From the NCBI RefSeq assembly GCF_011045215.1, contig NZ_CP049201.1: DNA of 64,000 bases, one strand, 5' to 3'. The DNA is from Escherichia coli. GTDB taxonomy: Bacteria > Pseudomonadota > Gammaproteobacteria > Enterobacterales > Enterobacteriaceae. How positions within the stretch are numbered: the first letter of the stretch is position 1; each line of letters begins with the position of its first letter. Below, in pieces: positions 855-57,096 of this stretch. The notes under the pieces are model-generated. The model ran no database searches and was not told the DNA's origin. It was given only the letters and a program-made list of their open reading frames with translations. The position numbers were made by a program, and so were the translations under genes.

Positions 855-988
855 GAAAGGCTCTCCAGGTTACAGGCTTTTCCTGCCCGATGCTAAAACG
901 GACAACAGTACCAGGTTACCCCAGTACTGTTGCTGTATGGATTAACAGGAGTGTAATCAAAATACGCCGATTTTGCACCTGTTCCGTG

Positions 989-1483
989 TTAGCGCGTCTT
1001 AATAACCAGACGATTACTCTGCTTGACTTCTTCCATAACAACGTATGTCCGTGTGTCATTGACGCCAGGCAGACGCAGCAGGGTTTCCCCCAGCAACTTA
1101 CGGTAAGCTGACATATCCGGCACGCGTGTTTTCAACAGGTAGTCGAAATCACCGGATACTAAATGACACTCCTGAATTTCTTCAAGTTTTTGTACAGCGG
1201 TATTGAATTGTTCAAACACATCCGGTGCGCCACGATTCAGAGTAATCTCAACAAATACCAGAAGTGATGCATCCAGATAATGGGGGTTCAGCAGCGCCGT
1301 ATAGCCCTGAATAAACCCTTGTCTTTCCAGCCGACGCACACGCTCAAGGCACGGCGTTGGGGAAAGTCCCACACGTTTAGAAAGCTCGACGTTAGAAATA
1401 CGCCCATCCTTTTGCAACTCATTAAGAATGTTACGATCGATACGGTCGAGATCTTTGCCAGGGCGCTTCTTGCTATCTACCAT
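989..1483 (-). CDS. lrp: Leucine-responsive regulatory protein Lrp (164 aa)
   Basis: Track ORF 989..1537(-) contains MVDSKKRPGKDLDRIDRNILNELQKDGRISNVELSKRVGLSPTPCLERVRRLERQGFIQGYTALLNPHYL...; start set at the MVDSKK methionine. Confidence 0.97.
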   Translation of the reverse strand: MVDSKKRPGKDLDRIDRNILNELQKDGRISNVELSKRVGLSPTPCLERVRRLERQGFIQGYTALLNPHYLDASLLVFVEITLNRGAPDVFEQFNTAVQKLEEIQECHLVSGDFDYLLKTRVPDMSAYRKLLGETLLRLPGVNDTRTYVVMEEVKQSNRLVIKTR

Positions 1484-1853
1484 TATTATTGTCTCTCTGT
1501 ATTCCTTCCCTACTCCTGTCTGACCCTGAAACATCACTGTTCAGAGTCGCTACCCGTCACGATAGACCGAAATCATGAAGATTCACGGCGCGCAATGCCT
1601 GGGTCTACGGTGAGAAGACCGTTGCCTTGTGGCAGCTATCGACATCACGAATGGCGTCTGTCCACGCCATACGTAGATTTCACTAGCACGGTAAACATGG
1701 TATTTACATGCATGGTTATGCGCATATAAGAATACTGTTTTTTTTCTTCCTCGAATGTTTTCGCAAAACACCAGGGGATTGTCAAAGCAAAACATCGATT
1801 TTTAGTACAACATGCCAGATATTCATTAACAGGGGCGTTTATTCATCATTTAA

Positions 1854-2993
<1,140 letters not shown>

Positions 2994-3115
2994 TTTTACA
3001 AATCAGTAACAAAAGTAAAGAAGGCGACACCATGCGACTATGGGTCGCCTTTATTTTTTCCCCGTTGTAACATTGCTCTGCAAATAATTCTGATAACTCA
3101 CCTGCTAAGCGTGCA

Positions 3116-6604: not shown

Positions 6605-6645
6605 GCTATTATTGAACGATCCGACTTGCGTGGAGTTTTGCGGTC

Positions 6646-7350
6646 ATGCGCCTGGTTCAGCTTTCTCGCCATTCAATAGCCTTCCCTTCCCCGGAAGGCG
6701 CATTACGTGAGCCTAACGGCCTGCTGGCACTTGGGGGCGATCTTAGCCCTGCGCGCCTGTTAATGGCTTACCAGCGTGGTATTTTTCCGTGGTTTTCTCC
6801 AGGCGACCCCATCCTCTGGTGGTCGCCCGATCCTCGCGCGGTGCTATGGCCAGAATCACTGCATATCAGCCGTAGTATGAAGCGATTTCATAAACGCTCG
6901 CCCTATCGTGTCACGATGAATTACGCTTTTGGTCAGGTCATTGAAGGCTGTGCCAGCGATCGCGAAGAAGGAACCTGGATCACGCGTGGCGTGGTCGAAG
7001 CCTACCATCGCCTTCACGAACTCGGTCATGCCCACTCCATTGAAGTCTGGCGTGAAGATGAGCTTGTCGGCGGTATGTACGGCGTGGCCCAGGGAACGCT
7101 ATTTTGTGGCGAGTCCATGTTCAGCCGGATGGAAAATGCGTCTAAAACGGCGCTTCTGGTATTCTGTGAGGAATTTATCGGTCATGGCGGTAAGCTTATC
7201 GACTGCCAGGTCCTTAACGATCACACAGCATCGCTTGGTGCCTGCGAAATTCCCCGTCGGGATTATCTGAATTATCTCAATCAAATGCGCCTCGGACGAT
7301 TGCCGAATAATTTCTGGGTACCACGATGCTTGTTTTCACCACAAGAATGA
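6646..7350 (+). CDS. aat: Leucyl/phenylalanyl-tRNA--protein transferase Aat (234 aa)
   Basis: Track [67 protein letters not shown]. Confidence 0.95.
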
Positions 7351-7631
7351 ATGTTTTCGGCACATTTCTCCCCAGAGTGTTATAATTGCGGTCGCAGAGT
7401 TGGTTACGCTCATTACCCCGCTGCCGATAAGGAATTTTTCGCGTCAGGTAACGCCCATCGTTTATCTCACCGCTCCCTTATACGTTGCGCTTTTGGTGCG
7501 GCTTAGCCGTGTGTTTTCGGAGTAATGTGCCGAACCTGTTTGTTGCGATTTAGCGCGCAAATCTTTACTTATTTACAGAACTTCGGCATTATCTTGCCGG
7601 TTCAAATTACGGTAGTGATACCCCAGAGGAT

Positions 7632-7853
<222 letters not shown>

Positions 7854-7892
7854 TTGTTTTACCGCCTGATGGGCGAAGAGAAAGAACGAGTA

Positions 7893-7923
7893 AAAGGTCG
7901 GTTTAACCGGCCTTTTTATTTTG
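7893..7923 (+). terminator. Rho-independent terminator downstream of infA
   Basis: AAAGGTCGG-TTTAA-CCGGCCTTT hairpin (one G-U wobble) followed by TTTATTTTG. Confidence 0.6.
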
Positions 7924-8106
7924 TGATATGTATGAAGTACTTTGGAAGTATAAGTCCGTAACTTGTCTCGATGTAGATATACTGCACAACTTGTTTACAG
8001 TATGAGCAAACAATAATTATCATTAAAATTCTTCTTGACCGTTTTACTCCAACTCCCTATAGTAGCGCCCCGTTGCCACCCATGAGGTTTGGCAGCAAAA
8101 CAATTT

Positions 8107-8194
8107 GGTGAGGTGTCCGAGTGGCTGAAGGAGCACGCCTGGAAAGTGTGTATACGGCAACGTATCGGGGGTTCGAATCCCCCCCTCACCGCCA
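8107..8194 (+). tRNA. serW: tRNA-Ser (anticodon GGA), 88 nt, long variable arm
   Basis: GGTGAGGTGTCCGAGTGGCTGAAGGAGCACGCCTGGAAAGTGTGTATACGGCAACGTATCGGGGGTTCGAATCCCCCCCTCACCGCCA; position directly after infA identifies serW. Confidence 0.92.
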
Positions 8195-16506: not shown

Positions 16507-19356
16507 TCAGAAGGTCACATTCAGCGTGGCCTGACCGTTATAGCCTTCGGCGCTGTTGCCGCTGACACTGTGGGCATAACCGGCCTGAACGCCCAGGGTG
16601 ATATTTTCCCGGACACGGGCTTCCAGTCCGGCCTGCAGGTCCAGTGACGTGCCATTCCGGGACGGTGAAAACGTCATGTTACTGCCGGCGGCGGCTGTAC
16701 CCATGCTCATGTCACCCCGGGAGCTGAAAGTGCGGATAACAGAAGGCTGTACCCACCAGTTCACCGGCAGTTCACTCACACGGTGTTTTGCACTGTCGCG
16801 CAGAGTGTCACGGGATGAGGTGCCTTCGCCAAAAGTCATATCGTTGTGGCTGCCCAGACGGAAGCCGGCACGCACATGTTGTGCACTGCCATGCCCGAAC
16901 TTCACATAACCGGCGTTATCCTGGCCGTCATCCAGGGAGAGCCCCTGCCAGGTGTACTGCAGTTGTGGCTCCAGCATCAGGTTGTCAGTGATACTGAAGG
17001 GCAGACCGGTTTCCAGTGAGCCCAGCCAGCCCCAGCCCCGGGCGCGGAAGTCGTTATTGTCCGATGACGCTTTCATGCTGTGGCGGGTTCCCTGGGCCAC
17101 AATGTCAGCCCACAGGCCGGAGGACGTGTGTACCAGATTCAGGTATCCGCCCAGGCTGCCGGCATCATCCCGGACCGTGCCGGCACGGGAGCCGTCATCA
17201 TCCTTAACATCAACGGAAGAATGGCCAGCAGCACCATACACTCCTGTCGTCAGTGACATACCGGCAACCTCTGTTCTCAGCAGGTCACCCTCCAGACGGA
17301 CGAGGCCATAGCTGCCGCTGCTTTCCGGCGTGGCCCCACGGGCAATACCACCGTTGTTATCGTGCCCGAGATGACCGCCCTGAATGCTGAGACGGACGCT
17401 GTTATTTTCACCGCTTACACCGGTCTGATGGCTGCGGGAACCTGCCAGAATCCGGTCATAGTCCATTGCCTGTGTCAGCATGGAGGCATACAGGGGGACT
17501 TCAGCACGATAAGCATTTTCACTGCGCAGGTACCAGTCTTCATCGCTGTCACGGTTCAGGGTGTAGTTAAAGGCGCCGGCCTGAAGCGGGCGACTCAGGG
17601 CAAACGCACCTTCTTCTGTGGTAGCACCATTCTGTGCATCCACAACCCGGATACCCTGTCCGGAGGTTGCCACCCCGAGGTTACTGTTTCCGACATTTGT
17701 AAACGCAAGCCAGGTTTTGCCGGTTGCCTGACCACCATTAATCACCAGCTGGTCAGAGGCATTACTGCCATCAAGGCTGACACGCATATTGATGGTGCCG
17801 CCCTGGCCGGTGAGGTTCGTGGTGGTTAGTTTATGGAACGTTACCGGGGAGTTACTTTTTGCAACAGCACGGCTCAGCGCGGCATCCGGTGTCGTCTGAT
17901 TATCAAAGTGAATCTCTCCTGCGTTAATAATATCGCCGGTACTGACCACATCACCATTCAGTACCATACTGGCGCCTTTACTGAGCTGTGTTCTGCCACT
18001 CAGACTTCCCCCGGCAGCCAGCGTCAGTGTTCCACGATGTCCGACAGTGGTGTTGCTGGCCAGTCCTCCGGCATTAACCGTAAAGCTGCCGCCATTTTCC
18101 AGCAGCAGGCCGCTGGCCTGACCGGATATGCCATCAATACTGAACTTACCGCTGGCATTGGTCCCCTCAACAGTGGCACCACTGTCTGCAATCAGGGCAC
18201 CACCGGATGTCATGGTGACATCTGTTGCCTTACCACCGGCAGACACTGCCAGGGTACCGCCGTCATCCACCAGTGTTTTCCAGGCTGAATGGCCCTCCAG
18301 TACATCCAGGCGACCGCCGGACTCCAGAACAACGCCGTCAGCCTTACCGTTTTCCACTGTGAAATTCCCCAGGCGGTTTGTGCCGGTGACAGTTGCAGCA
18401 GTACTGGTAACCAGTGCACCGCCCGTGTTCTGGGTGACTGCAGTGGCTTCCCCGCCGGCATGTACCCTCAGTTCACCGTTCTGATTTATGGTGGTGTTAC
18501 CGGCAGCGCCACCGGCCTTAACAACCTGCCAGCCCCCCTCGTTAATTACCGTGTTCAGCGCCAGTCCGTCCTTGTGCACATACTGGTAACCGCCATTCAG
18601 TGTGGTATTCAGGGCCCTTCCGTGTACCGACTGGTCACCACCTGCGTAAATGAGAGTGTCACGGGCTATCCCGGAAGATAAGATAATCTGCCGTCCATTT
18701 TTGTTGATGGTGGTGGATTCTGCTGTTCCCTGGACCTTCTGACCCGTGTACGAGTTGTCAGAATCCGGGCCGCCTTCTGCGCCGGTGTTGATGATGGTTC
18801 CTGTTGCCAGCCCGCCACTTTTAACGCTCTGGTAACCGTCGCGGTTGATAATTGTACCGGTGGCAACCCCGCCCTCATGAACCCACTGCTCGCCTCTGTT
18901 ATTCAGCGTGGTGTTCACCGCCAGCCCGTTCAGGCTCTGTCCCCCGCCGTCACGAATAACCGTATCACTGGCTGTTCCCCCCTCCAGCACGACCTGACGA
19001 CCATTTGTGGTGACAGTGGTGTTTCCGGCTATCCCGCCATTCTGTATCCATTGCCCACCGGTGTTTTCTTCACTGTCCGGCCCCAGTTCCAGCCCGGTAC
19101 TGATGGTCATTCCGTTGGCCGTACCGAGGACAATCTGGTTGTCATGATTTGTCAGTGTTCCGCCGCTCATGGTTTCTCCCGCCTGTACAACCGTGTCAGC
19201 AGCCAGTGCCGGGACTGACGTGACAGCAGCAAGAGACAGCGCAACCGCCACACCGGTGCGTTTTCCCCGTGAGCGGGCCAGTTCGGAGGCCACCACCAGG
19301 GTGCCCGTAATGTGATTCCATACCAGCCTGTAGCTGGTGTTCAGATGTCGTTTCAT
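16507..19356 (-). CDS. flu: Antigen 43 (Ag43) self-associating autotransporter, ~949-aa allele
   Basis: Track ORF 16507..19431(-); start at MKRHLNTSYRLVWNHITGTLVVASELARS (extended signal peptide); repetitive passenger domain; C-terminal beta-barrel ending ...GYNGQATLNVTF. Confidence 0.92.
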   Translation of the reverse strand: MKRHLNTSYRLVWNHITGTLVVASELARSRGKRTGVAVALSLAAVTSVPALAADTVVQAGETMSGGTLTNHDNQIVLGTANGMTISTGLELGPDSEENTGGQWIQNGGIAGNTTVTTNGRQVVLEGGTASDTVIRDGGGQSLNGLAVNTTLNNRGEQWVHEGGVATGTIINRDGYQSVKSGGLATGTIINTGAEGGPDSDNSYTGQKVQGTAESTTINKNGRQIILSSGIARDTLIYAGGDQSVHGRALNTTLNGGYQYVHKDGLALNTVINEGGWQVVKAGGAAGNTTINQNGELRVHAGGEATAVTQNTGGALVTSTAATVTGTNRLGNFTVENGKADGVVLESGGRLDVLEGHSAWKTLVDDGGTLAVSAGGKATDVTMTSGGALIADSGATVEGTNASGKFSIDGISGQASGLLLENGGSFTVNAGGLASNTTVGHRGTLTLAAGGSLSGRTQLSKGASMVLNGDVVSTGDIINAGEIHFDNQTTPDAALSRAVAKSNSPVTFHKLTTTNLTGQGGTINMRVSLDGSNASDQLVINGGQATGKTWLAFTNVGNSNLGVATSGQGIRVVDAQNGATTEEGAFALSRPLQAGAFNYTLNRDSDEDWYLRSENAYRAEVPLYASMLTQAMDYDRILAGSRSHQTGVSGENNSVRLSIQGGHLGHDNNGGIARGATPESSGSYGLVRLEGDLLRTEVAGMSLTTGVYGAAGHSSVDVKDDDGSRAGTVRDDAGSLGGYLNLVHTSSGLWADIVAQGTRHSMKASSDNNDFRARGWGWLGSLETGLPFSITDNLMLEPQLQYTWQGLSLDDGQDNAGYVKFGHGSAQHVRAGFRLGSHNDMTFGEGTSSRDTLRDSAKHRVSELPVNWWVQPSVIRTFSSRGDMSMGTAAAGSNMTFSPSRNGTSLDLQAGLEARVRENITLGVQAGYAHSVSGNSAEGYNGQATLNVTF

Positions 19357-19569
19357 CAGCTTTTCCTTACAGAGGGTGAATAAAAAAGCCGGTACCCACA
19401 AATGTGGATACCGGCAGGTACAAAACAGCATGGTCAGATAAAGTGGTTTTTCCCGGACATAAATGCTTCCCCTCTCTCATCCGCCAGAGAAGTATCAGTC
19501 CGTTGTGTGCAATTCCGTTCTGCATGATGAAGAGATTCAGCTGCCTTTTCGCAGGCCATTAACCACTAC

Positions 19570-41299: not shown

Positions 41300-43126
<1,827 letters not shown>

Positions 43127-43798: not shown

Positions 43799-44344
43799 TT
43801 AACCCTCCTTCATTAATAAATGATTTCTGAAAATCAAAAAGGACCACACATCACAAAACATTATTTGAAATCATCATCAAAAAACTATAAATATATCACC
43901 TGACGATTTGAACACACTGACAAAAAACCAGGCATGGTAATAAACCGAACTCCCCACAAACTTCTGTTGCCTCAGATACCACAGCCACTTTCCTCAGGTA
44001 TAAATGTTGTTCCATAACGAACCAGCCCTGTATCGTTAAATCCTGCCTCAGTGACATAATGTAACTCACCAGACTGAGTCTTCGCCTACATCATCATTTC
44101 AATACGCTTAATACATTATTCATAATATCCAGAATTTCCTATAGAATATTTACTTTGCTATATCAGTCGGTCCATAATCAGGCAAATCATTAATGCTTCC
44201 TGACTGAATATTTAAAATGCGTCACATGTTATCAAAAATTTAAAGAATACCCTATTCTTCTTCATTGGCCGGATTTAGCTCAATCTTGTCAACAAAACTA
44301 ATATAAAGCCGTTCATAAAGAGAAGGATGTAGCTTCGTTATTTA

Positions 44345-44460
44345 TCTTTTACATGTAACAGTACCAGGGGATATTCCGCACATCTCTGTGGCTATCATCC
44401 CCACCACATCGCCGGTGGCAGCACCTGCGGCACCAGCAAGAACGTTATTTCCCAATGTCC
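44345..44460 (-). pseudogene. Remnant of a cdiA pretoxin-region coding segment (no start codon)
   Basis: Reverse frame encodes ...GNNVLAGAAGAATGDVVGMIATEM..., homologous to cdiA at ~46620-46700 (QGNNALAGAAGAATGEVVGMIATQM); nucleotide similarity visible by eye. Confidence 0.45.
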
Positions 44461-44467
44461 GGATTAC

Positions 44468-44728
44468 TCAGGATCCTGACGAGGGCGTTTTTCGAGCCTT
44501 GCGTTCGTCCAATTTGGTGAAGATCCACGATCTAAATGCTGCTGCAGTTCCAACAATAACACTAGCAACTAAAATATTTTCAAGATCTGATTGCTTAATA
44601 TTCACTTCATGGCTAATAACAAACTTAACTACTATCAGAGTCAAGGAGAAGAATATTAAGCAGCAGAAAATCATGTACATAATACTTAGGAGCAGTAAAC
44701 CTACAGTAGCTTTATTTTTTCGTTCCAT
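44468..44728 (-). CDS. Small membrane protein (86 aa), candidate immunity protein for the upstream toxin-like ORF
   Basis: Track ORF; two hydrophobic helices; overlaps the stop of the 200-aa ORF. Confidence 0.5.
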   Translation of the reverse strand: MERKNKATVGLLLLSIMYMIFCCLIFFSLTLIVVKFVISHEVNIKQSDLENILVASVIVGTAAAFRSWIFTKLDERKARKTPSSGS

Positions 44729-45314
44729 TTATCTCATCTTTAACTGCATTGCTGATAAATTCACCACCTATAGCACCAATAATATCACCTGAAGGCACTG
44801 AACCTGGACCTAAAACAGGGCTAAATACCGGCGGTGCAACTACTCCAACTACAGTACCGAATACCCAACCAGCTCCCGTACCAGCTAAAGCACCTTTATC
44901 TGGTCCATCAATAAATAGAGTTCCACCTGCCGCTATCCCTGCGTTCTGCCATATATTTCGACCTGGAGCCAGCGCTCCAGTAATGCCTGCCGAGGCACTT
45001 CCCCAGTAATCCCAGCTCTTGTTTTCATTGCCTGGTTTGCTCAAGTCGTACCACTGATACGTACCATTGGCAATGGCTGAGATGACTGCGCCACTGACTA
45101 CTTTACCTGTTGATGCTGCAGGTCCTAAATACCAGGCACCTGCAATCAATACGCCATCTTTATAGCCATCAACTATCACTTTACTTATATTGGCACCTTC
45201 AGGTAACTCACCTTTGGCAAGTTTATCCAGTCCTGCCTGCTTCTGTTCCGGGGTGAGATTATTGGCATCAGCATACTGATTCCATGAGGAAACCGCCTGA
45301 CCATAACTCACCAT
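44712..45314 (-). CDS. Glycine-rich toxin-like protein (200 aa), possible pore-forming/ionophore module downstream of cdiI
   Basis: Track ORF; glycine-zipper-like hydrophobic stretch GALAGTGAGWVFGTVVGVVAPPVFSPVLGPG...IIGAIGG; same composition as the CdiA C-terminal domain. Confidence 0.5.
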   Translation of the reverse strand: MVSYGQAVSSWNQYADANNLTPEQKQAGLDKLAKGELPEGANISKVIVDGYKDGVLIAGAWYLGPAASTGKVVSGAVISAIANGTYQWYDLSKPGNENKSWDYWGSASAGITGALAPGRNIWQNAGIAAGGTLFIDGPDKGALAGTGAGWVFGTVVGVVAPPVFSPVLGPGSVPSGDIIGAIGGEFISNAVKDEINGTKK

Positions 45315-45352
45315 TCCTGATGGCAGACTGAGCGCATTATTCTCAACAACAA

Positions 45353-45571
45353 CTATTTACGATAGTATCTTCGCATTTGTAGATAGAGTTGTAACCAAAT
45401 CCCAGCACCTCCCCATAAGCCAACTACTGCGCCAATTATTCCGTATTTTACATACACCTCAGAAGGTATTGGTTCCCGAGCTATAAACCAGATACTAACC
45501 ACTATTCCAATAGAGCAAGTAGCTATAGATATAAGTAACAACTTAATAAGAAGTAGTAGATGTTTTTTCAT
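45353..45571 (-). CDS. cdiI: Putative CdiI immunity protein, small inner-membrane protein (72 aa)
   Basis: Track ORF; start overlaps the cdiA stop; two predicted transmembrane helices. Confidence 0.65.
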   Translation of the reverse strand: MKKHLLLLIKLLLISIATCSIGIVVSIWFIAREPIPSEVYVKYGIIGAVVGLWGGAGIWLQLYLQMRRYYRK

Positions 45572-48500
45572 TTTTTGTCTCCATCAACTTCTTTTTGCGT
45601 TGCGCTGCTTGCACCTTCTGATACGAATGAACCAACAAATCCACCAAATGTTCCTGGTATAGAACTCATTTGGCCGCCTTGATACATACCGTATCCGATA
45701 GACTTTTCCGAATATTGCAGTGAATATTTACTGGCGTCCATTCCCAGTTGATTTTTGATGTATTGAGCTTCTAACTTATTAGTAATTGAAGCGCCAATGT
45801 TATAGCCAAGGCCTGTACCAGCCATGCTACCCACTACTGATGCGGTACTGTCCTGGCCTTCAATCTGGCTGCTCATGTAAGCGCTACCGGCACCCAACAA
45901 CTGGTTAGCGTAATATCCTTTCCCGGCTGTACCTACACCAGTCAAGCCTGACATCATGAAACTGAGATAATCGAACTTATCACCGATATTTCCCGTACCA
46001 ATTTGTACCGCACCATTAGCCCCATAGCTCAGCCCGGCACTAACAAATTTTTCCGTCAGCGTGGCTGATGACGTTAACAACGAACCCGCTCCGGCAACCG
46101 TACCCCAGTAATTTTCCGGTTCCCCGAAGAAAGCCAGAGCCCTGTCACCCTTCGACGTATTACTGTTCAGATAATTCAGGTCGTAGCTGTTGCCTTCAGC
46201 CACGTAATCCTTCACCTCCTGATTAGTCAGTGAACCATACAGCCAGCTAGGTCGGCCCGCCGCGCTGAGCCCGCCCTCAATATTCCATTTATCTTCCCCG
46301 GACAGAGCCGTCAGAGGATCTGCGGCCACATCAATGTGTAATTTCTGTCGGTTCTCTGCGCTTAATACAGCATATTTATTCTGAATATCGCCGCAGTCTC
46401 CACCCGCTTTACGACAGGCCGTCATTTCTCTGTCAAAAGCATGCGCCTCGTCGTAGCTGAGGTAGTTATTCTCAACTGTTGTCTTACCTGACTGTGCGCC
46501 GGCTACCGCTGAAGCCCCCGAGTCGCCCACCAGACCACCGGCCAGGCCGGCAGCAACCGTTGCCAGCGTGGAGACCGTCTGTTTCTCTGTCTCACTCAGT
46601 TCACTCACCGGTTTATCGTACATCTGTGTGGCTATCATTCCCACCACCTCGCCGGTGGCTGCACCTGCAGCACCGGCAAGAGCATTATTTCCCTGTGCCA
46701 GAGACAGTGCGGCATTCACCACGGCATGGGCGGCCACATTTGCAGCCTTATTCACCTCACCTGTAACCGGGTCTGTGGTCATGGTTTTCACCACTTCAGC
46801 CAGATACGGTGCTGCACCACCTGCCAGGGCTGCACTCAGATTACCGCCGGCCAGCCCCTGTACTGCTGCCGTTGCGGCCTGTATCGCCTGCTGGTATTTG
46901 CCTCCCGTTCCAAAACCGGAGGCCGCCATACCGTTATTGTAAGCCCGCTGTGCCACATCCTGTTCCGTGAACGGTTTTCCTGCTGCCTCAAGCTCTGCAC
47001 GGGCCTGATTCAGTGCTGCCGGGTCCCGTTTCGCTTTCTCACCGGCTATCTGTCCTTCCGTTCTGGCAATATCTGCCACCTGGTTACCAATCTCACCAAT
47101 GAGTTGCGCCTGCTGCAACCGCTGCTGCTCTTTTTCCCTGTCAAAGATGGGGGACAGCGTCTGGTTTGCATGCGCAACGTCACGGTTCAGGTCTGCCACA
47201 TCCTGTTTCTGGCTCTGTGTATCCCGGATAGTGATATTCCCGGCAGACACAGCCGACTGCGTGGTACTGTCCGCATGGCCTTCATGATTTGCACCGACCA
47301 GCAGATTGTTTGCCATGTTCCCCAGGAAATTTCCGGCAACACTGCCACCGGTACTGAGCCCTGCACTCTGATGTTCCGTTTTAAAGTCAGCCCGGTTTTC
47401 AGTGTCACTGAAGCCCAGTGTGCCGGTATCCAGCCTGTTTTTATCTGCCGTTGCCGTGGACGCAATCACCGCACCGTTCAGTTGTGTATGCTGTCCGGTC
47501 GTGACATCAAACCCGCCCCTGCCGGCAAAAATCCCTGTCTGCTCCTGCACACTGTCGTGGTTACTGTGCATTTTATCCCGGCTGAGGCTCACACTCGCCG
47601 AACCGCTCATGGACCCGAAAGTGAAGCTGCCTCCGGCGCTGGCATTCTGCTGTTTACTGTCATAATGGTCACTGTCCTGCTCACTGGTCAGTGTCAGATG
47701 GCGACCGGCATCCACTTTCACGGTTTCTCCACTGGCCTGCGCCCCGGTAAGTGTGGTGTCACGCCCACTGATAATGGTCAGCTGTTTTCCCGCATCCACC
47801 GTGGTTTCTGTATGGGTGGTACCGTTGCCTTTTTCACTGCCCTTACCCTGGTTTGCGCTGGCTGACAGACTGAAACCAGGCCCTCCGGGCCCCACACCGA
47901 TACCGACACCCACGCTGCCACCACTGGATGTGTTCTTTCCTTCCAGCTTTGACGTGTTTTCTGCTGATACCAGATTCACGTCACGGTTTGCCTGCAGCAG
48001 AACGTTGTTCCCGGCCTTTATCTGACCGCCCTGTATCGTCAGGTCACCATCCACGCCCTTCACGCCGGAGCCGGTGGCCTGAATACTGAGGTTATTACCT
48101 GCGGTCAGTGTACTGCCCTTCGCCACCGTCTGCTCTGACTGCTGTTCTGATTTCGAAGACTGGCTGCCGTAAGAGAGGCTGATACCCACGGTATTGTTAT
48201 TCTCTTTCTGGTTGCCCTGTGCTTCTGCCAGTCGTCCGGCCTGCACGGCCTGAGCCCCCGAGAGCGCGGCCTTCACCCCCTGCAGGGCTTCAAGCCGGCT
48301 GTTTCCGGCAGATTTCGCCGCCTGTACGGTCTCCACCGTCGTGTTCAGGGCGCTGCCCGCTGTGCCGGACAGGGCAAGCGTCAGACCGGAGGTTTTCTGC
48401 TCCACCGTATGTGTCTGCACATGCCGGTCAGTGGCGGCGGTAATGCTGACCTCCTTACCACTGAGTGCCATGTCCCTGCCGGCAATCAGGTCAGAGCCGT

Positions 48501-51500
48501 TGACGGTCAACCGGTTACCTGCCTGAAGGGAAACATCACCGTGAACACTCCCCACCGTGCTGCCTTTCTGCGTGGTGTCTGTTGCGGTGTCCGTGACCTT
48601 CAGACTCTGGCTGCCCACGCTGAATCCCACACCTCCGGAGCTCATCAGTCCGGATTTTTTCTCCTGTTTCAGGTGTGTTTCACGGTTGCTTTCTGTCAGC
48701 GTTCCGATACTCAGGTTATTTCCGGCAGCCAGGGAGACACGGTTATCCCCGGCCACACTGCTGCCCGTGACGTTCAGATTATGTCCGGCACCGATACTGA
48801 CCGTATCCCCGTTCAGTTCACTGCCCGTCATGGTCCGGCGGTCAGTGACATCATGCGTGGTAGTGGTGGTTTTCGATAACATCCCGCTGTTGCCGGTCAC
48901 TTTATGGTATTCATCCAGCGAGCGGGTATTCTGTGCACCGGTCAGCGTCACGTCATGACCCGCCATCAGGGCCAGGCCTTTCTGAGCTGACAGCAATGCC
49001 GCCTGTGACGTCATATCCCGTCCGGCGGTCAGCGTGACATCACCGTTACCGGCAAGCGTGCTGCCCGTACTCTGTGTGACGCCCTGCGACAGACGATTAT
49101 TTTTATCCCAGATAATATTGTCCTGCGCGGATGTGGTCACTGTGGAGAATGTCATATCCCTGCCGGCACTGAGTTGCGTCAGACTGTCCTTACCCTGGTT
49201 CACCACCGTTGCTGCCGTCAGGTTTATGTCCCGTCCGGCCTGCAGCACCAGTCTGCCCTGGTCATTCTGCACATATACGCCAGCCACACTGTCGATGCTG
49301 GTACGTTCAAAATGGTTCTGTCCGGCGTCACTCTGTGCCGTACGGGTGGTGGTGGTCAGACTGATATCCCGTCCGGCCATCGCCAGCAGGCTGTCCGTGG
49401 CCTGCAGCAGCCCGCCGGTACTGTTAATATCCGTCCGGGCCGTCAGGCTGACATTTGCTCCCTGAATGGTGCCGGCCTGGTTGTGAATGTTTTCTGCACT
49501 GAGCTGCACGGCCTGCTTCCCGGCCAGTTTACCGCTGTTAAACAGGTCACCATCCAGCTTCATCACCATGTCCCTGCCGGCAATCAGCGCACCGGCACTG
49601 TTCACATCACCGGGTTTTACACGGGCATACACCTGAGGTACCTGAACCGTCTGCGTGCTGCCGTCCGGCAGTGTCACCGTGGTGTTAACCAGCCAGACAA
49701 TATCACCGGTCAGTAACGCCATCTGCTCAGCAGTCAGCGCCACACCTGGTGTCAGGTTGTATTGCTTACCAAATGCAATACCCGCATCCATTAACGCCTT
49801 AAACTGCTCTTCATCATTACTGTATCCGTCCAGGTACCGTTGCCCGGTCAGAGCGACAACCTGCTCACGAATCAGACGCTGTTCGTAAAAACCATCCCCC
49901 AGGCGTTTGAGCATGTTATCCCCGTTCTGAGAAAACGCCTTCTGCATGTAATCACTGCCCAGCCACGTCTTCTGGTTCGTAAAACGCGGGTCCGTTTCAA
50001 CCAGATATGGCACATTCACTGCCGGATTTGTTTTAAACAGGCTGCTGTCCGGCAGACGGGTATCCGGCCCGGCAACATGGATACTGCCCTGAGGTGCGCT
50101 GACTTCAAACTGCTGCCCCGGCAACAGAATGACCGGTTCACCGGCTGACACCACCGGGCGAAGCGGTATCCGGTCAGTAACGGCTACTGTCGCATCCACA
50201 TTTCCGGTCAGTCCTGTCTGTACATCCGTTCCCTGTGGCTTCAGGGGAGAAAGCGTGACCTGGCTGCCCTGAACCTGTCCGTGGCTGGTGAGCTCTCCCG
50301 GCTTCAGCGTGATGGTCTGAATGACGGGGGGCGGCTCGTAAGGGGAAATTCTTTCCCCCTGCCTGTCATTTTTATTTTTTCTTTTTATCCGGTAATAATA
50401 TGTGGATGTCCCTTTATCAGTAACATGGCGCTCTCCGCTGACACTGACGTTTTCCACATCACCGGCCTGCATATCCAGCAGACCACCTGCAACCACCTGG
50501 CTCTTGTCATTAAGCAGTTTGTCTGCCACAACCGTCATGCCGGCACCGGACAGTATTTTCCCCGGGTCGGAGTCTTTTACCCGGGTTTCCTCCACGGTAC
50601 GGGTGTATTCATATTTTGTGAACCGGTCGTTGTTATGTCCGGTATCATCCGGCGTGTTCAGGTTCAGCAGTCCATCAGAGGAGTTGTTATCAATGAACAC
50701 CCCCTCATCTTTTGCATTCCAGCGGACATCTGACCCGCGATGCTGATACTCAGTCACCTTTTCCGTGGAAACCACCACGCGCTCCGTGGTGAAATGGTCA
50801 TTGACGTTATTGATTTGTCCGGCACTCAGTACCAGATATCCGGCGGCTTCAATAGTGGCACTGTGATTATTCAGTACACCGGTTTTACCTGTGGCGGTGC
50901 CATTCGCATCCAGCGTGCCACCGATATGCATATCACCTGCACTGTAAATCAGGCTGTGCGTCCGGTTATTCAGGGTCTGTACCCCCAAGTCCACACGCTC
51001 ACGCCCGGCCAGCGTCGCCGCCACGCCATTTTCTTCCAGATTATTAAATGTGGCAGCACTGACACCAACAGCATCGCCGTAGATTCGCCCGGTACCGGAA
51101 TTCGTCAGGGTGTTCGCCTGAAGATGCGTATATTTCCCGTCAATCAGCCCACGGTTCAGCAGTGTGTCCGTCACGTTAAGCCAGGTCTGCCCGGCACTGA
51201 TTTCACCTTTCCCGGTGTTTTCAAGGCGGATGCTGTTCAGGTCAAGTCGGCTGCCTGCCAGCAGGCTGCCGGTATTAGAGACATCGCCATTAACGGAAAG
51301 CGTAAGGTTTCCGTTCGCAATAGTCTGACCACTGTTACTGAACGCTGTGTTACTTTTCAGCGTTATATCGCCCGGGGAAAGCAGTTTCCCGTCACCACCG
51401 AGCTGACCGGCATCCACAGAGACTGACTGCCCGGCCTTAACCACACCGTCACGGTTCGAAAACGCCAGCTGACGGCCACTGACAGACAATGTCGCGCCGG

Positions 51501-54500
51501 AAGAGAGCACGCCATCATTATTACTGAGCGTCCTGTCTGCCATAACCGTAAGCGCCCTGTCTGCCAGAATACTGCCCTCCTGGTTATCAAGGTCCTGCGT
51601 CGTGATGTGTATTGTCTGCGCTTCCAGCCCCTGGCCGGTATTCTGCGTGTGGCGATTGATAAACTGCAGGGCGTTCAGCGTAATGGCAGAACCACTGCGA
51701 ATCAGACCAGAGACGTTGTCCACAACGCCCCGTACACTGTCGAACAGAATGTCGCCCACAGACTGTATCTGTCCGTGGCTGTTCTGCAGGCCTCCCGTAT
51801 GCAGACGGAGTTCACCTTCACTGACCAGCCGGCCACCCTCACGGTTATCCAGCGAGGTGGTGCTCAGGTCAGCTGTCGTTTTCGCCCCCACGGTCCCGCC
51901 CCGGTTATCCATTGCTCCGGTACTGACAGTCAGTTCCTGCAGGCTGTTCAGCGTACCCCCTCTGTTATCCAGCGTCCGGCCTGCGCTATTAATGCTGATG
52001 CCTTTCCCCTGAATAAGACCGGACTGATTGTTCAGCGCCAGACTGTTCCGGCCGGGCAGACCGGTCGCCACAATCTGACCATTCGCCACCACCTGACCGG
52101 ATGTATTGTTAACCACGCCTGCAGTCAGGGACAGCGCATCTCCCGACAAAAGCACACCGGCAGTGCTGTCCAGTGTGCCGGCATTCAGCGTCATCGGGCC
52201 CTGACTGATAACCCCGCCCCGGTCACCACTGTTACGGTTGCTCAGTGTGTCAGCACGGAGATTCAGTGTGGCACCGCTCTGTATCAGACCACCTGCATCA
52301 TTGCTGATATCCGTCGAGGAAAGGGTCAGTGACTGCTGTGCCACCAGTCTGCCGCCCTGATTATCAGAGCGGGTGACATCCAGCCTGCTGTTACCGTTGC
52401 TGACCACCGTCCCCTGCTGATTTTCCAGCACATTCAGGTGCGCATTCAGGTCCCCGCCGGCGGCAAGCGTCCCTTCCTGATTACTGACATCGCCACCACT
52501 CAGCAACATATCCGTCCCGGCCTTCAGTGCGCCTTTCTGGTTCATCAGCGTACCTGACGATATCTGTAATGACGCCTGACTCCCCAGCACGCCCTGACGG
52601 TTATCGAGCGTTCCGGCGTTCAGGGTCATATCCTTCTGACCCGCCATAAATCCCTGCTGGTTATTCAGCATACCGGCCCGTACTGTCAGGGTACCGGCGC
52701 TGCTGATACCACCCCGTGTTTTCGTGTTCCGGTTACTGAGAACCCCGTCCTGTACATCCAGCGTCATGTCACTGCCGGACTGAATCAGACCATCATCAGA
52801 GACCAGTTCGCTGCCTGACACAGACAGCGTTTTCTGTGAAAGCAGTCTGCCGGACGTATTATCCAGCGCACCATCCAGCGTCACGGACAGCCCGTCAGAC
52901 ACCACCGTACCCTGGTGGTTATTCAGACTCCCTGCCGAAATATCCAGCCTGCCGGCGGACTCCATTCGTCCCTCAGTATTGCTGACAGCCTGCTGTGTTT
53001 TTATCCTGCCCGTTCCGGCAGCAGCTGAAATCAGTCCGTTGTCGTTATTCAGTGCCTGTGTATTAATCAGGATGTCACGGCTGGCAATCAGACTTCCCTG
53101 CTGGTTATCCACGGCGCCGGTTGTCCTCACCTGCAGACTACCTGACTGCGCCGCCTGCACTTTCCCCCTGCGATTATCAAGGCTCAGTGCATCCAGGCGC
53201 ACCGCGCCATTTGCCGCAAGCAGCCCTTCCCGGTTATCCACGCTTCCCGGCAGACTCAGCGAAAAATCCCCTGTTCCCGTCTGAATCAGACTGCCTTTAC
53301 GATTTGACAGGCTCTGTGCCGATATCTGCAGTGTGTCGGCATTTACCGTGCCACCATTATTGCTGAACTGCCCGGCAGTCCGGGCGGAAAGCGTACCGGC
53401 ACTCAGTTGTGCATTCTGTGTGGACAGATTTCCGCTGCCTGCATCCAGCTCAGTATGTTGTCCCTGTATCCGGCTGTTGCTTAAATCCAGCCCCTGCCCC
53501 TTCAGTTGCATGTCCCCACCGGACAGAACCTGTCCGTGTGCCGCCAGTTCGCCGGTGGTACTGACAGTCAGGTTGCCCGCTGCCGCCAGACGTCCGTCAT
53601 CTTTCACCCCGGCGGCCAGCAGACTCCGCTCACCGCCGGTCAGACGCGCTGTCTGAATCCGGGTGTTGCGGCGTGATGCCACAGAGCCTGTATGGGTGAA
53701 TGCACCATCACTCTGTATCTGCGTATCCTGCCCCGCATAAACAGAACCACTGTTATGCAGCTCCCGGGTTGTCGCCAGATGCACATCCGTTTTCGCACTG
53801 ATACTGCCACTGTTTTCAATACGTCCGTCAGCCGTCAGGGTAACCGCCCCTGCCTGCGCACCAATATGACCGGCGTTACGAACCCCCACCCCCGTTTCCG
53901 TACCGACAAGGCGAATTTTTCCGGCATACATTCCACCAAGGCTGGACACATCCAGCGCCACCTGTGGCTGCGAAGAGGCATCAGCGGCTTTTTTCTCAGT
54001 CTGCCCGTGTGCAATATCCACATTGTTACGTCCGGTGGTCACTTTCAGGTCCTGCGCCCAGATACCCGCATTAATCTTCACAGACCGGGCAATGATATCG
54101 GTATAATCCGTGCGCGAGGCATCCATCCCTTTGCCCGTAATCTGAATCTCACCACGTTCAACACTGAATCCGGTCAGACTGCCGTTTTTCATCTGAGGCT
54201 GCCCCGTGGTCAGCGTGGCCCGGTTCGCATTAATAAAACCGCACCCGTCGCAACTGATGCCGGCCGGGTTCGCAATCACCACCTGCGCCTTTTTCCCGGC
54301 AACCTCAACAAAACCGTTCAACTGGCTGGGATTGCGACTGTTCACTTCATTAAGAATGATTCGGGCCTCTCCCTTCGCCAGCCACGGGTTACCGGCAACC
54401 ATGCCGCCCAGTTGGGTCTGCACATTTTTATGCGAGTTATTCAGAATGACACCCTGATGACTGACATCAAACTGACTGTAAGTATTGTGCGATACCCCAC

Positions 54501-54804
54501 CTGCAGAAGGTGTCTGGATATTGACCTGAGGAATGCCGCTGGCTGTCTGCGTAATCGTGGGCTGCTGATGCCCCGGTGCGCCATGGTCTGCGACAATGCC
54601 TGCAGCACTGACAGAATGCACCATCCCCGAGGCCAGCCACAGGGAGAATGCAAGCGATGTGACACGGCAGATACGTTGCCTGCGTGGATATCCTGTACGG
54701 GAGGAGGGTGATGCACCGGCGCGACCGGAACGGGCAATATCTGCCACCACCATCAGCATTCCCCGGGCTTTGTTAAAAATAATGCGGTAACAATTTTTGT
54801 TCAT
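45568..54804 (-). CDS. cdiA: Contact-dependent growth inhibition exoprotein CdiA (3078 aa), two-partner-secretion TpsA family
   Basis: Track ORF; extended signal peptide MNKNCYRIIFNKARGMLMVV; TPS domain (NTYSQFDV...ILNEVNSRNPSQL); long repeat region; VENN motif 298 aa before the C-terminus. Confidence 0.92.
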   Translation of the reverse strand: MNKNCYRIIFNKARGMLMVVADIARSGRAGASPSSRTGYPRRQRICRVTSLAFSLWLASGMVHSVSAAGIVADHGAPGHQQPTITQTASGIPQVNIQTPSAGGVSHNTYSQFDVSHQGVILNNSHKNVQTQLGGMVAGNPWLAKGEARIILNEVNSRNPSQLNGFVEVAGKKAQVVIANPAGISCDGCGFINANRATLTTGQPQMKNGSLTGFSVERGEIQITGKGMDASRTDYTDIIARSVKINAGIWAQDLKVTTGRNNVDIAHGQTEKKAADASSQPQVALDVSSLGGMYAGKIRLVGTETGVGVRNAGHIGAQAGAVTLTADGRIENSGSISAKTDVHLATTRELHNSGSVYAGQDTQIQSDGAFTHTGSVASRRNTRIQTARLTGGERSLLAAGVKDDGRLAAAGNLTVSTTGELAAHGQVLSGGDMQLKGQGLDLSNSRIQGQHTELDAGSGNLSTQNAQLSAGTLSARTAGQFSNNGGTVNADTLQISAQSLSNRKGSLIQTGTGDFSLSLPGSVDNREGLLAANGAVRLDALSLDNRRGKVQAAQSGSLQVRTTGAVDNQQGSLIASRDILINTQALNNDNGLISAAAGTGRIKTQQAVSNTEGRMESAGRLDISAGSLNNHQGTVVSDGLSVTLDGALDNTSGRLLSQKTLSVSGSELVSDDGLIQSGSDMTLDVQDGVLSNRNTKTRGGISSAGTLTVRAGMLNNQQGFMAGQKDMTLNAGTLDNRQGVLGSQASLQISSGTLMNQKGALKAGTDMLLSGGDVSNQEGTLAAGGDLNAHLNVLENQQGTVVSNGNSRLDVTRSDNQGGRLVAQQSLTLSSTDISNDAGGLIQSGATLNLRADTLSNRNSGDRGGVISQGPMTLNAGTLDSTAGVLLSGDALSLTAGVVNNTSGQVVANGQIVATGLPGRNSLALNNQSGLIQGKGISINSAGRTLDNRGGTLNSLQELTVSTGAMDNRGGTVGAKTTADLSTTSLDNREGGRLVSEGELRLHTGGLQNSHGQIQSVGDILFDSVRGVVDNVSGLIRSGSAITLNALQFINRHTQNTGQGLEAQTIHITTQDLDNQEGSILADRALTVMADRTLSNNDGVLSSGATLSVSGRQLAFSNRDGVVKAGQSVSVDAGQLGGDGKLLSPGDITLKSNTAFSNSGQTIANGNLTLSVNGDVSNTGSLLAGSRLDLNSIRLENTGKGEISAGQTWLNVTDTLLNRGLIDGKYTHLQANTLTNSGTGRIYGDAVGVSAATFNNLEENGVAATLAGRERVDLGVQTLNNRTHSLIYSAGDMHIGGTLDANGTATGKTGVLNNHSATIEAAGYLVLSAGQINNVNDHFTTERVVVSTEKVTEYQHRGSDVRWNAKDEGVFIDNNSSDGLLNLNTPDDTGHNNDRFTKYEYTRTVEETRVKDSDPGKILSGAGMTVVADKLLNDKSQVVAGGLLDMQAGDVENVSVSGERHVTDKGTSTYYYRIKRKNKNDRQGERISPYEPPPVIQTITLKPGELTSHGQVQGSQVTLSPLKPQGTDVQTGLTGNVDATVAVTDRIPLRPVVSAGEPVILLPGQQFEVSAPQGSIHVAGPDTRLPDSSLFKTNPAVNVPYLVETDPRFTNQKTWLGSDYMQKAFSQNGDNMLKRLGDGFYEQRLIREQVVALTGQRYLDGYSNDEEQFKALMDAGIAFGKQYNLTPGVALTAEQMALLTGDIVWLVNTTVTLPDGSTQTVQVPQVYARVKPGDVNSAGALIAGRDMVMKLDGDLFNSGKLAGKQAVQLSAENIHNQAGTIQGANVSLTARTDINSTGGLLQATDSLLAMAGRDISLTTTTRTAQSDAGQNHFERTSIDSVAGVYVQNDQGRLVLQAGRDINLTAATVVNQGKDSLTQLSAGRDMTFSTVTTSAQDNIIWDKNNRLSQGVTQSTGSTLAGNGDVTLTAGRDMTSQAALLSAQKGLALMAGHDVTLTGAQNTRSLDEYHKVTGNSGMLSKTTTTTHDVTDRRTMTGSELNGDTVSIGAGHNLNVTGSSVAGDNRVSLAAGNNLSIGTLTESNRETHLKQEKKSGLMSSGGVGFSVGSQSLKVTDTATDTTQKGSTVGSVHGDVSLQAGNRLTVNGSDLIAGRDMALSGKEVSITAATDRHVQTHTVEQKTSGLTLALSGTAGSALNTTVETVQAAKSAGNSRLEALQGVKAALSGAQAVQAGRLAEAQGNQKENNNTVGISLSYGSQSSKSEQQSEQTVAKGSTLTAGNNLSIQATGSGVKGVDGDLTIQGGQIKAGNNVLLQANRDVNLVSAENTSKLEGKNTSSGGSVGVGIGVGPGGPGFSLSASANQGKGSEKGNGTTHTETTVDAGKQLTIISGRDTTLTGAQASGETVKVDAGRHLTLTSEQDSDHYDSKQQNASAGGSFTFGSMSGSASVSLSRDKMHSNHDSVQEQTGIFAGRGGFDVTTGQHTQLNGAVIASTATADKNRLDTGTLGFSDTENRADFKTEHQSAGLSTGGSVAGNFLGNMANNLLVGANHEGHADSTTQSAVSAGNITIRDTQSQKQDVADLNRDVAHANQTLSPIFDREKEQQRLQQAQLIGEIGNQVADIARTEGQIAGEKAKRDPAALNQARAELEAAGKPFTEQDVAQRAYNNGMAASGFGTGGKYQQAIQAATAAVQGLAGGNLSAALAGGAAPYLAEVVKTMTTDPVTGEVNKAANVAAHAVVNAALSLAQGNNALAGAAGAATGEVVGMIATQMYDKPVSELSETEKQTVSTLATVAAGLAGGLVGDSGASAVAGAQSGKTTVENNYLSYDEAHAFDREMTACRKAGGDCGDIQNKYAVLSAENRQKLHIDVAADPLTALSGEDKWNIEGGLSAAGRPSWLYGSLTNQEVKDYVAEGNSYDLNYLNSNTSKGDRALAFFGEPENYWGTVAGAGSLLTSSATLTEKFVSAGLSYGANGAVQIGTGNIGDKFDYLSFMMSGLTGVGTAGKGYYANQLLGAGSAYMSSQIEGQDSTASVVGSMAGTGLGYNIGASITNKLEAQYIKNQLGMDASKYSLQYSEKSIGYGMYQGGQMSSIPGTFGGFVGSFVSEGASSATQKEVDGDKK
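45571..46476 (-). other. CdiA-CT toxin domain: VENN motif (46465-46476) plus 298-aa glycine-rich C-terminal domain
   Basis: ...GKTTVENNYLSYDEAHAFDREMTACRKAGGDCG... followed by Gly/Ala/Ser-rich hydrophobic stretches (GTVAGAGSLL, GLTGVGTAGKG, VVGSMAGTGLGYNIGA). Confidence 0.75.
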
Positions 54805-54819: not shown

Positions 54820-55347
54820 TTATCTCTCCGGCACATCCACAGCAAGCGGGTGCTGCACACGCCACTGGCGCGCCTCTTCACGACTGACCTGTGCACCCCG
54901 GAAATTCATCACCCGCAACCCGGTCTGCTGCCCACGGTGGTACAGCGAACGCCAGCACAGACGGGGAAAAATATCCTGCCGGACAAGACGACTCATATCC
55001 GGGGTATGTCCAAAAGGGGCAATCCAGTCACAGACCCACATCCGGTCGCCGCTGTTCCAGTCCGACTGAGGCATGAGAATTGCCGGCTGCGTAAGATAAC
55101 GCGCCTCTGCCTCCGGGCTGAGCCAGGCCTGGCTCATGAAGAAAACCGGTCGCCCCTGCTCTGTTGCCACCACATACTGTCGGTGCTTAATCACCGGCAG
55201 CAGCAGGTCCGGCAGGGTATGCAGTGGCGCATCACGATGCAGGGGGGAGTGCATCCACAACCAGACGGCCGCCCCCAGAACTTCCGCCTCATTGACCGGC
55301 TCACCGGAATACAGGGGACTCAGAACGTCATATTTCCCGTTACGCAT
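54820..55347 (-). CDS. cdiC: CdiC, HlyC/CyaC-family toxin-activating lysine acyltransferase (175 aa)
   Basis: Track ORF; VWLWMHSPLHRDAPL and SGDRMWVCDWIAPFG align with the HlyC motifs SWLWASSPLHRNWPV and SGDRKWFIDWIAPFG (HlyC recalled from memory); lies between cdiB and cdiA. Confidence 0.85.
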   Translation of the reverse strand: MRNGKYDVLSPLYSGEPVNEAEVLGAAVWLWMHSPLHRDAPLHTLPDLLLPVIKHRQYVVATEQGRPVFFMSQAWLSPEAEARYLTQPAILMPQSDWNSGDRMWVCDWIAPFGHTPDMSRLVRQDIFPRLCWRSLYHRGQQTGLRVMNFRGAQVSREEARQWRVQHPLAVDVPER

Positions 55348-55356: not shown

Positions 55357-57096
55357 TCAGAAATCCCGGAACAGATTAAAACCGGCTGTCACATCACTCG
55401 TCATAAAACCCGCCGGTTTTGAAAACGGACGACCGATGAAAACGTCATAATCCGTACTGAACAGTTGCCCCCTCAGCCCCACAACACCACCGGCCAGATG
55501 ACGTCCCACCAGGTATTCACTGCCGGCTCCCCCCACCTCGCCGTAATCCATTCCCAGATATAACGCCTGCTCCGGCAGTGGCGTACGCCAGGCCAGGTCG
55601 TTGCGGATATACCAGCCGTTACTGGCATTCAGCGTTCGCTCCCCGTCAAAACCACGAACCGTCCAGCGGTTACCGATGGCAAACTGTTCCTGTGGGGTCA
55701 GCGGGGTATTGCTCAGCTGGCGCTGATACCGGAAGGAATAACTGAAGGGCTGCCCTGCAAGGGTAAAGGGCAGATTAAAGGATGCATTCAACTGCAGGAT
55801 CTTACTGAGCGCCGTTGCCTCACCGAACGTTTCTTCCGGCGCCGGCTGTGCACCAAACCAGCGGGTTCCCCGTTGCCAGCTGACACCAGCATCCAGTGTG
55901 GCCTGAGAAATATAATGACGGTGCTGCAGCCCAAGTCGCCAGGCCGCTGTCTGCCGGCGCTGCACCTGGATTTCCGTATCATTAATGTAGTTACGCGACC
56001 TGCGGGCCTGAACATCGTAGGTCAGCACCGTTTTCTGCGTCCCGTTACGGTGCAGTACCCGGCTCAGCTGCATACCCAGATTCTGACTCTCGCCACTGTA
56101 CTGGTAATCCTCAACCGCACCAGCTACCGTCTGATGGTAATCGTAATCACTGGCGGTGACGGAAAACTGCCAGTAGCCGAAAGGCACAGAGTAATGGGCC
56201 GTGTAGTTTTTACTGCCCTTACCCCCGTAATGTGGAAAATTACGGGTGGCAGAAACATACAGCAGGTCACTCAGGGAAAAAGGATTATCCAGAGAAAATG
56301 TTATACCACCGAGATAACGCCCTGTGCTGCGGGTACCTGAATCATCAAGCGAAAACCCCAGTCGCCAGTATTTGTCCTGTTTGCGGGTAATAAGAATGTC
56401 ACTTTCCCCTGGCTGCTCACCGGGTACAATTTCCATATCAGCCTGCACACCCGGCAGTCGTTGCATATTCTCCAGCCCCTGCTCAATGTCCCGTAAATCC
56501 AGCAGAGAACCTTCGTGTGCCGGGAATGAGGAATACAACTGAATATAGTCATCACTGTCCGGTGTCAGACGCACATGTCGCACAACACCGGGAATAACAA
56601 CCAGCCGGAGGATACCGCTTTTTAAATCCTGCGAAGGTGCCAGAACACGGGTGGTGACATAACCATGATCGACCAGACGGTTCTGCAATGTACTCATCAG
56701 CAGATTAATTCCTTTCGCCCCCAGGCAATGCCCGACCGCCCCGTTGGCGATTTTTTGTAAAGGCAGCCAGTGTGGTAACGCATCAGCCCCCTCCAGTTCC
56801 GTCTGTTTAATCTGAAAACAGGGCGTTTCAACAGGAAAATTAATCTTACGGGCAAAAGAGCCAGGTGCAGAAAGGCGAACATCAGGGGCTGAAGGCGTCA
56901 GTTGTTGCTCAAGGGCTTCCTGACGCTGCTGCTGAATGATAAATGCATTATCTCCGCTACGCCGGACATCCGCGGCCTGAAGAGATAAAGGCGATAATAA
57001 AACAGACATCAGTGTCAGTGACAGCAAGGACGGACAGCGCCGGAATACGCTTTGTTCCTCAGCCCTCTCGTTCCTGCAACATAATTTTCCAGTCAA
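55357..57096 (-). CDS. cdiB: CdiB, TpsB/Omp85-family outer-membrane transporter (579 aa)
   Basis: Track ORF; signal peptide at the internal start [15 protein letters not shown] (~57009); C-terminal beta-barrel ending ...AGFNLFRDF. Confidence 0.88.

Follow-up and report, generated by a model that had tools for sequence, protein, structure and literature searches.

Organization of the locus

The DNA analysed here (the window) is a stretch of 64,000 nucleotides from Escherichia coli, which carries a cdi locus on the minus strand. The features that were recognized in this locus, in the order of transcription, are as follows:

55357–57096, minus strand: cdiB, outer-membrane two-partner-secretion transporter (phmmer against PDB: CdiB 6wil_A, E 1.1e-76, and 6wim_A, E 7.8e-54; FhaC, E 2.5e-27)
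54820–55347, minus strand: cdiC-like gene for an HlyC-family lysine acyltransferase, between cdiB and cdiA (Pfam PF02794 HlyC, E 4.6e-32, full-length model match)
45568–54804, minus strand: cdiA, 3078 aa (ORF list; 95–96% nucleotide identity to E. coli cdiA and hemagglutinin-repeat genes)
46456–46608, minus strand: PT-VENN domain of cdiA (PF04829, E 3.2e-21, C-terminal 510 aa scanned)
46476–46465, minus strand: VENN codons of cdiA
45568–46464, minus strand: main CdiA-CT
45353–45571, minus strand: main cdiI, 72 aa, hydrophobic (ORF list and hydropathy; 4-nt overlap with the cdiA stop)
44712–45356, minus strand: orphan cdiA-CT o1, open frame IVVVENN…, 211 residues from VENN to the stop codon (direct reading and alignments)
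44468–44728, minus strand: orphan cdiI o1, 86 aa, predicted two-helix membrane hairpin (start overlaps the toxin end by 17 nt; homology and hydropathy)
44377–44453, minus strand: 5′ stub of orphan cdiA-CT o2, 26 codons, GNNVLAGAAGAATGDVVGMIATEM (homology to cdiA just upstream of the Pfam PT-VENN model)
44342–44376, minus strand: read-through past a deletion junction, …CGISPGTVTCKR and then a stop codon, without cdiA origin (the homology to cdiA and to locus L002 ends there)

Since a gene for an HlyC-family acyltransferase is located between cdiB and cdiA, the locus was assigned to the cdiBCAI type, for which lipidation of CdiA is expected. The main 72-aa CdiI was found as the exact protein in about 190 contigs and is unnamed in all of them. 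The main CdiA-CT is also rich in glycine and shows 32% identity over 107 residues (E 1e-5) with the ionophore domain of the orphan o1; paired with the 72-aa cdiI, it is, judged from its sequence, probably another CDI ionophore, whose entry domain is of a different and longer kind.

Directly after cdiI, and on the same strand as cdiB, cdiC, cdiA and cdiI, a 200-aa ORF (44712–45314) is followed by the 86-aa ORF (44468–44728) with a 17-nt overlap, as reported in a first-pass annotation of this DNA. That annotation had considered the two ORFs and a cdiA pretoxin remnant beyond them as a likely array of orphan modules, with a separate bacteriocin-like pair as the alternative.

Positions 1–8194 of the window contain the core genes trxB-cydD-cydC-aat and then tRNA-Ser(GGA) at 8107–8194. 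Rightward of this tRNA gene an Ag43 autotransporter (16507–19431), IS4, IS21 and IS481 transposases and the cdi locus were found, and all of this part looks like a serW-associated genomic island. Two SF1-helicase-like ORFs, possible defence genes by their sequences, are located downstream of the array on the minus strand: one of 893 aa (36349–39030) with partial matches to the anti-phage ProA and Hhe models, and a UvrD/PcrA-like one of 608 aa (41300–43126), the counterparts of which in other strains are annotated as NERD or 3′-5′ exonuclease. A 405-aa TssA/ImpA-N-like ORF (39657–40874; TIGR03362, E 9e-24) constitutes, together with 43972–44340, T6SS debris beside the cdi array.

Reading frame and 5′ boundary of the orphan toxin

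The 200-aa ORF starts at an internal Met codon at 45314. Direct reading and alignment showed that its frame is open for 14 codons 5′ of this ATG and encodes IVVVENNALSLPSG, then M. The codons, listed outward from the ATG, are GGA-TCA-CCA-CTG-AGT-CTC-GCG-AAT-AAT-GAG-GTT-GTT-GTT-ATA, with a TAA beyond them at 45359–45357, and the translation of the frame is I-V-V-V-E-N-N-A-L-S-L-P-S-G-M-V-S-Y…. The VENN motif is the mark of the CdiA-CT boundary. In o1 it is encoded in frame at 45347–45336, eight codons ahead of the ATG, and abuts the end of the main cdiI, the TAG stop of which (45355–45353) is overlapped by the start of the o1 frame. The VENN-coding sequence was also returned by the repeat finder as a repeated 20-mer (D3, 45328–45347 and, within cdiA, 46457–46476). 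Because the frame upstream of the ATG is open through VENN, the 200-aa ORF is the continuation of a VENN boundary; VENN stands at the 5′ boundary of o1, and the CdiA N-terminus and secretion signal are absent from it.

The ATG that had been ascribed to the 200-aa ORF as its own start proved to be the conserved internal Met of the segment ...LPSGMVSYGQ... in full-length CdiA, which in E. coli 52F4 reads …GKTTVENNALSLPSGMVSYGQAV…. By this alignment the o1 ATG is an internal Met codon of a CdiA C-terminal toxin (CT), with no dedicated start. An AGGA sequence directly abuts the ATG, with a spacing of zero, and makes a poor initiation context, from which some internal translation may still be conceived. 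The earlier remark that the ORF lacks upstream pretoxin homology was correct as regards the long pretoxin stretch, which is missing, and overlooked VENN in the open frame, which is what remains together with three pre-VENN codons. In some strains (P0001, P0002) this o1 allele keeps about 150 residues of the pretoxin sequence that is trimmed to VENN in the window.

Properties and homologues of the o1 toxin and immunity protein

In agreement with its earlier description as glycine-zipper-rich, the 200-aa product contains 15.9% Gly and a G-x3-G zipper, G151-G155-G159-G163-G167-G171, besides G190-G194-G198, and thus includes the GxxxGxxxG motif. Megablast of the complete E. coli genomes identified a counterpart in E. 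coli 52F4, annotated as 'hemagglutinin repeat-containing protein'. From VENN to the end, the o1 CT showed 85% aa identity to the CT of this full-length CdiA (WP_277387285.1, 2359 aa), the first about 130 residues being nearly identical and the last about 80 polymorphic. The next gene in 52F4 overlaps that of CdiA and encodes a 90-aa product (WP_021531609.1). Hence a CT of this kind terminates a full-length CdiA elsewhere, the exact allele being seen only as an orphan. Alignment with other orphan copies gave 97% identity, and that with the CT of the main cdiA in STEC17-183, where the product of cdiI is WP_001222075.1, gave 52%. A wider protein search returned 246 homologues of o1 across the Enterobacterales, mostly fragments of 190–370 aa, many with PF04829 directly upstream, and mostly annotated as 'VENN motif pre-toxin domain-containing protein' or 'adhesin'.

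No meaningful match to Pfam or NCBIfam was obtained for the CT, the two immunity proteins or the o2 stub; curated models for these families are missing, as is also noted in a 2024 paper (PMC11630599). An AlphaFold2 model of the CT, obtained with an alignment of 61 sequences, contained helices only and is unreliable (mean pLDDT 46, pTM 0.29). In view of a reported entry-domain homology with Ntox25 toxins, an Ntox25 CdiA-CT, that of locus L008, was set against the o1 CT; by eye the two showed no similarity, and a shared entry domain was rejected for this particular Ntox25 CT.

The small ORF that follows the toxin had been noted as a membrane protein, and the Kyte-Doolittle profile of its 86 residues agrees, with hydrophobic stretches at residues 5–42 and 52–70, as expected for a two-helix hairpin of 72–100 residues. 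The protein is 42% identical to WP_021531609.1 (locus L003), the CdiI encoded behind the 52F4 CdiA, and 25% identical to WP_001222075.1. On these grounds the 86-aa gene is very probably that of the cognate two-helix inner-membrane immunity protein of o1, at the confidence given below to the orphan-module explanation as a whole.

The remnant o2 and the deletion junction

Beyond the 86-aa gene, a segment of about 115 bp had been described as homologous to the cdiA pretoxin region. The homology is real and well outside what chance would give: positions 44377–44453 align without gaps with 46617–46693 at 88% identity (blastn E 8.7e-22), and the repeat finder agrees. It is 77 nt long, starting at 44453, 14 nt past the stop of the 86-aa gene, and 44345–44376 is unmatched in cdiA. 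The term pretoxin region is right in a broad sense, since the Pfam PT-VENN model follows closely on the matched cdiA segment.

In O111:NM strain 14614 the homologous sequence runs on through …GKTTVENN… into another Gly-rich CT of about 220 residues, so that a complete orphan with PT-VENN and CT is present there; the remnant was for this reason recognized as the 5′ end of a second orphan, o2, cut short to a stub. No VENN, CT or immunity gene is left in the stub. A five-way alignment showed that the window, STEC17-183 and C5 switch jointly to unrelated sequence at about 44376; judged from this alignment, VENN, the CT and the immunity gene of o2 were lost in a deletion common to several lineages.

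The sequence on the other side of the junction (44342–44376) is common to loci L001 and L004 and to about 500 E. coli genomes, with the adjoining TssE pseudogene. The latter corresponds to about 43972–44340, the region that PGAP calls a frameshifted TssE pseudogene, which is located beside an Ail/Lom gene and is present at about 90% identity in the same set of about 500 genomes, O157:H7 EDL933 included. As read from these comparisons, the o2 deletion joined the stub to T6SS-debris sequence upstream of the Ail/Lom gene. A 37-aa ORF with a TTG start over the stub (44342–44455) was considered as a gene and rejected, being a pretoxin fragment that is read through the deletion junction.

Distribution of the o1 module

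The o1 module was found behind different main cdiA-CTs in STEC17-183, C5 and O111:NM 14614: in STEC17-183 after another group 3 CT and one more orphan, and in C5 and the O111:NM-type loci as part of a longer array whose CdiA carries an Ntox25 tip. The main CT of the window and its 72-aa cdiI are, in turn, orphans in C5 and O111:NM. As an orphan this pair occupies 5701–8342 in C5 (L004) and 3456–3953 in L002, with up to 279 codons of pretoxin sequence. The occurrence of this pair as the main one in the window and as an orphan in C5 and O111:NM suggests that a recombination ('reloading') or deletion event at VENN or pretoxin sequences, in one direction or the other, separates these loci.

The exact arrangement of the window was absent from the complete E. 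coli genomes searched. The polymorphic half of o1 (44468–44900) was present in 14 of 5426 complete E. coli genomes, as an orphan in all of them, and no strain deploying the exact o1 allele on a full-length CdiA was found among these 5426. Many assemblies of E. coli and E. albertii contain the exact o1 proteins, and in the loci inspected the module occurs only inside cdi loci. In the O111:NM-type lineage (L002, L008–L017) the toxin frame shifts after W116, because a G4 run equivalent to about 45001–45004 of the window has lost one nucleotide; all 11 loci of this type that were inspected keep the 86-aa immunity ORF intact, and the toxin of the window is itself intact.

Relation to known orphan modules and to CDI ionophores

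Orphan modules of this kind were described by Poole et al. 2011, PLoS Genet (PMC3150448), among them cdiA-CTo1/cdiIo1 of EC93 and the eleven orphans of EC869. According to that work, orphan cdiA-CTs usually lack initiation signals and encode VENN, and are functional when fused to CdiA; in EC93 the orphan cdiI is transcribed and protective and synthesis of the orphan CT was undetected; and reloading of CdiA by recombination is documented for Y. pestis Microtus (PMC3150448). The o1 module shares with those orphans its position directly downstream of cdiI, a start at VENN without secretion signal or good start codon, a small cognate immunity gene next to the toxin, and the presence of the module on a full-length CdiA in another strain. 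How much upstream cdiA sequence is kept varies among the published orphans, from none at all to a great deal, and fragments without VENN or without cdiI also occur in their arrays (PMC3150448). The toxin of EC93 o1 is a tRNase of the UPEC536 type, whereas that of the window is predicted to be of the ionophore type; the window module differs from the EC93 type also in that only VENN and three pre-VENN codons are left, overlapping the stop of the main cdiI. Orphan rhs-CT/rhsI modules follow the same logic, with displaced toxin tips and immunity genes downstream of the main gene, but have a DPxGL boundary, where o1 has VENN, and Rhs/T6SS delivery.

The CDI ionophores were treated by Halvorsen et al. 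2024, PLoS Genet. In that paper (PMC11630599) the toxins are divided into an entry domain at the N-terminus and a five-helix ionophore domain at the C-terminus, with the GxxxGxxxG motif as the sole element common to all of them, and the immunity proteins are hydrophobic two-helix hairpins of 72–100 residues; the variation is concentrated in the ionophore domain and the immunity protein, identity of immunity proteins within a group being typically about 30%. It is further stated there that ΔacrB targets resist all representative group 3 toxins, that the toxins depolarise target cells, and that cytosolic production of the group 3 CT(U124) and of CT(EC93) is toxic in an AcrB-dependent manner, the more so once VENN is removed. 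The S1 Table lists WP_021531609.1 three times under group 3 and WP_001222075.1 also in group 3. The o1 module was assigned to group 3 because it is homologous to the CT/CdiI pairs (85% and 52% for the CT, 42% and 25% for CdiI) whose immunity accessions stand in this table. It resembles the group 3 ionophores in the conserved N-terminal and polymorphic C-terminal ionophore parts of the toxin, the glycine zipper and the small hydrophobic two-helix immunity protein. The allele itself falls outside the accessions of the S1 Table; a search of the PMC11630599 supplements for its accessions and sequence strings matched only the two related group 3 CdiI accessions. In agreement with this assignment, o1 is a predicted group 3 AcrB-dependent ionophore, to which depolarisation and the need for AcrB are ascribed by group membership. 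With the founding CDI ionophore CdiA-CT(EC93)/CdiI(EC93), which is of group 1, it would share the mechanism (depolarisation, AcrB as membrane receptor and a small membrane immunity protein) and differs from it in the entry-domain group.

Taken together, the region 44342–45356 (minus strand) is interpreted, with a probability of about 0.88, as the orphan tail of the cdiBCAI locus, composed of an intact o1 CT/cdiI pair and an o2 pretoxin stub. In this interpretation the o1 CT has two parts, an entry domain at the N-terminus and, after it, an ionophore domain with the glycine zipper. The VENN start, the 85% identity to the C-terminus of the 52F4 CdiA and the homology of the partner to published CdiI proteins uphold the first suggestion of an orphan-module array with a cdiA pretoxin remnant. 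The resulting layout, cdiBCAI – o1 (intact) – o2 (stub), is well known and ordinary in E. coli.

Alternative explanations and expression

The separate bacteriocin-like pair of the first-pass annotation would be autonomous, unrelated to cdiA and expressed from its own ATG. The intact 200-aa ORF, the AGGA preceding the ATG, the absence of long pretoxin homology upstream and the lack of a Pfam or NCBIfam match fit such a pair, but VENN is located in frame directly upstream, the same sequence ends a full-length CdiA, and many homologues carry PF04829 upstream. Moreover, the presumed start codon is a conserved internal Met with an SD-to-ATG spacing of 0 nt, and a leader peptide and export genes are absent from the module, which is confined to cdi loci. 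An unrelated pair is accordingly given hardly any credence. Decay of the whole tail into functionless debris, with toxin and immunity gene both unused, would be in line with the evident state of o2 and the nearby T6SS pseudogenes, with the frameshifted toxin of the O111:NM-type lineage and with the lack of a deploying strain among the complete genomes. Against it, neither of the two window ORFs is interrupted over its 645 or 261 nt, all inspected loci, those with a broken toxin included, keep an intact immunity ORF, and proteins identical to these two are found in many assemblies of E. coli and E. albertii; this explanation is considered unlikely.

The internal ATG leaves a further way to account for the intact pair, namely that a cytosolic ionophore is made from it at a low level and neutralised by the 86-aa protein, so that the island is stabilised as by an addiction module. 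The toxicity from the cytosol of group 3 CT(U124) and of CT(EC93), increased without VENN (PMC11630599), is in favour of this, as are an intact ORF that starts eight residues after VENN and a gene overlap of the kind seen in toxin-antitoxin pairs. However, the initiation context is poor and the Met belongs to the conserved CT sequence, Poole et al. detected no orphan CT synthesis in EC93 (PMC3150448), and a sister lineage tolerates a frameshifted toxin with an intact immunity gene, which speaks for a dispensable toxin. An internally expressed addiction module is thus judged very unlikely. A bolder form of the idea, that the o1 pair acts as an AcrB-dependent addiction module (in effect a ΔVENN cytosolic ionophore made at a low level from the internal ATG) that stabilises the serW island, or that the allele is maintained solely as a store of immunity to a toxin that is no longer deployed by any sequenced E. 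coli, is a long shot.

Under the orphan-tail interpretation, probably only the immunity gene of the o1 pair is expressed. Little or no toxin would be made, since there is no secretion signal and the sole start codon has its AGGA at zero spacing; from CDI biology (PMC3150448, PMC11630599) the orphan CT would be unsecreted and probably untranslated. A scan between cdiA and the stub found no terminator-like site and no minus-strand promoter-like site, the promoter counts being those expected from shuffled sequence; both scans, for promoters and for terminators, were rated uninformative. As no terminator-like site was seen up to the stub, the 86-aa immunity gene may be co-transcribed with cdiA-cdiI and expressed by this read-through. 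Its product would insert as a hairpin in the inner membrane and bind the ionophore domain, and would thus protect the cell from neighbours deploying the toxin. The intact o1 CT may serve as a spare warhead, loadable onto cdiA by recombination at VENN or pretoxin sequences. If delivered on a full-length CdiA, its entry domain would rely on AcrB for insertion of the helical bundle with the glycine zipper in the inner membrane of the target, the membrane potential of which would then be dissipated by the inserted ionophore.

Significance

The mechanism implied is nothing new. The annotation is corrected in that the proteins deposited as 'adhesin' and 'hypothetical protein' represent a predicted CDI ionophore CT of group 3, in orphan form, and its CdiI, whose gene is often missing from annotations. 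One uncharacterised toxin/immunity allele is added to a family predicted at about 30 cognate pairs in E. coli, and the comparison with the O111:NM-type lineage provides a modest example from nature of stronger retention of orphan immunity than of the orphan toxin.
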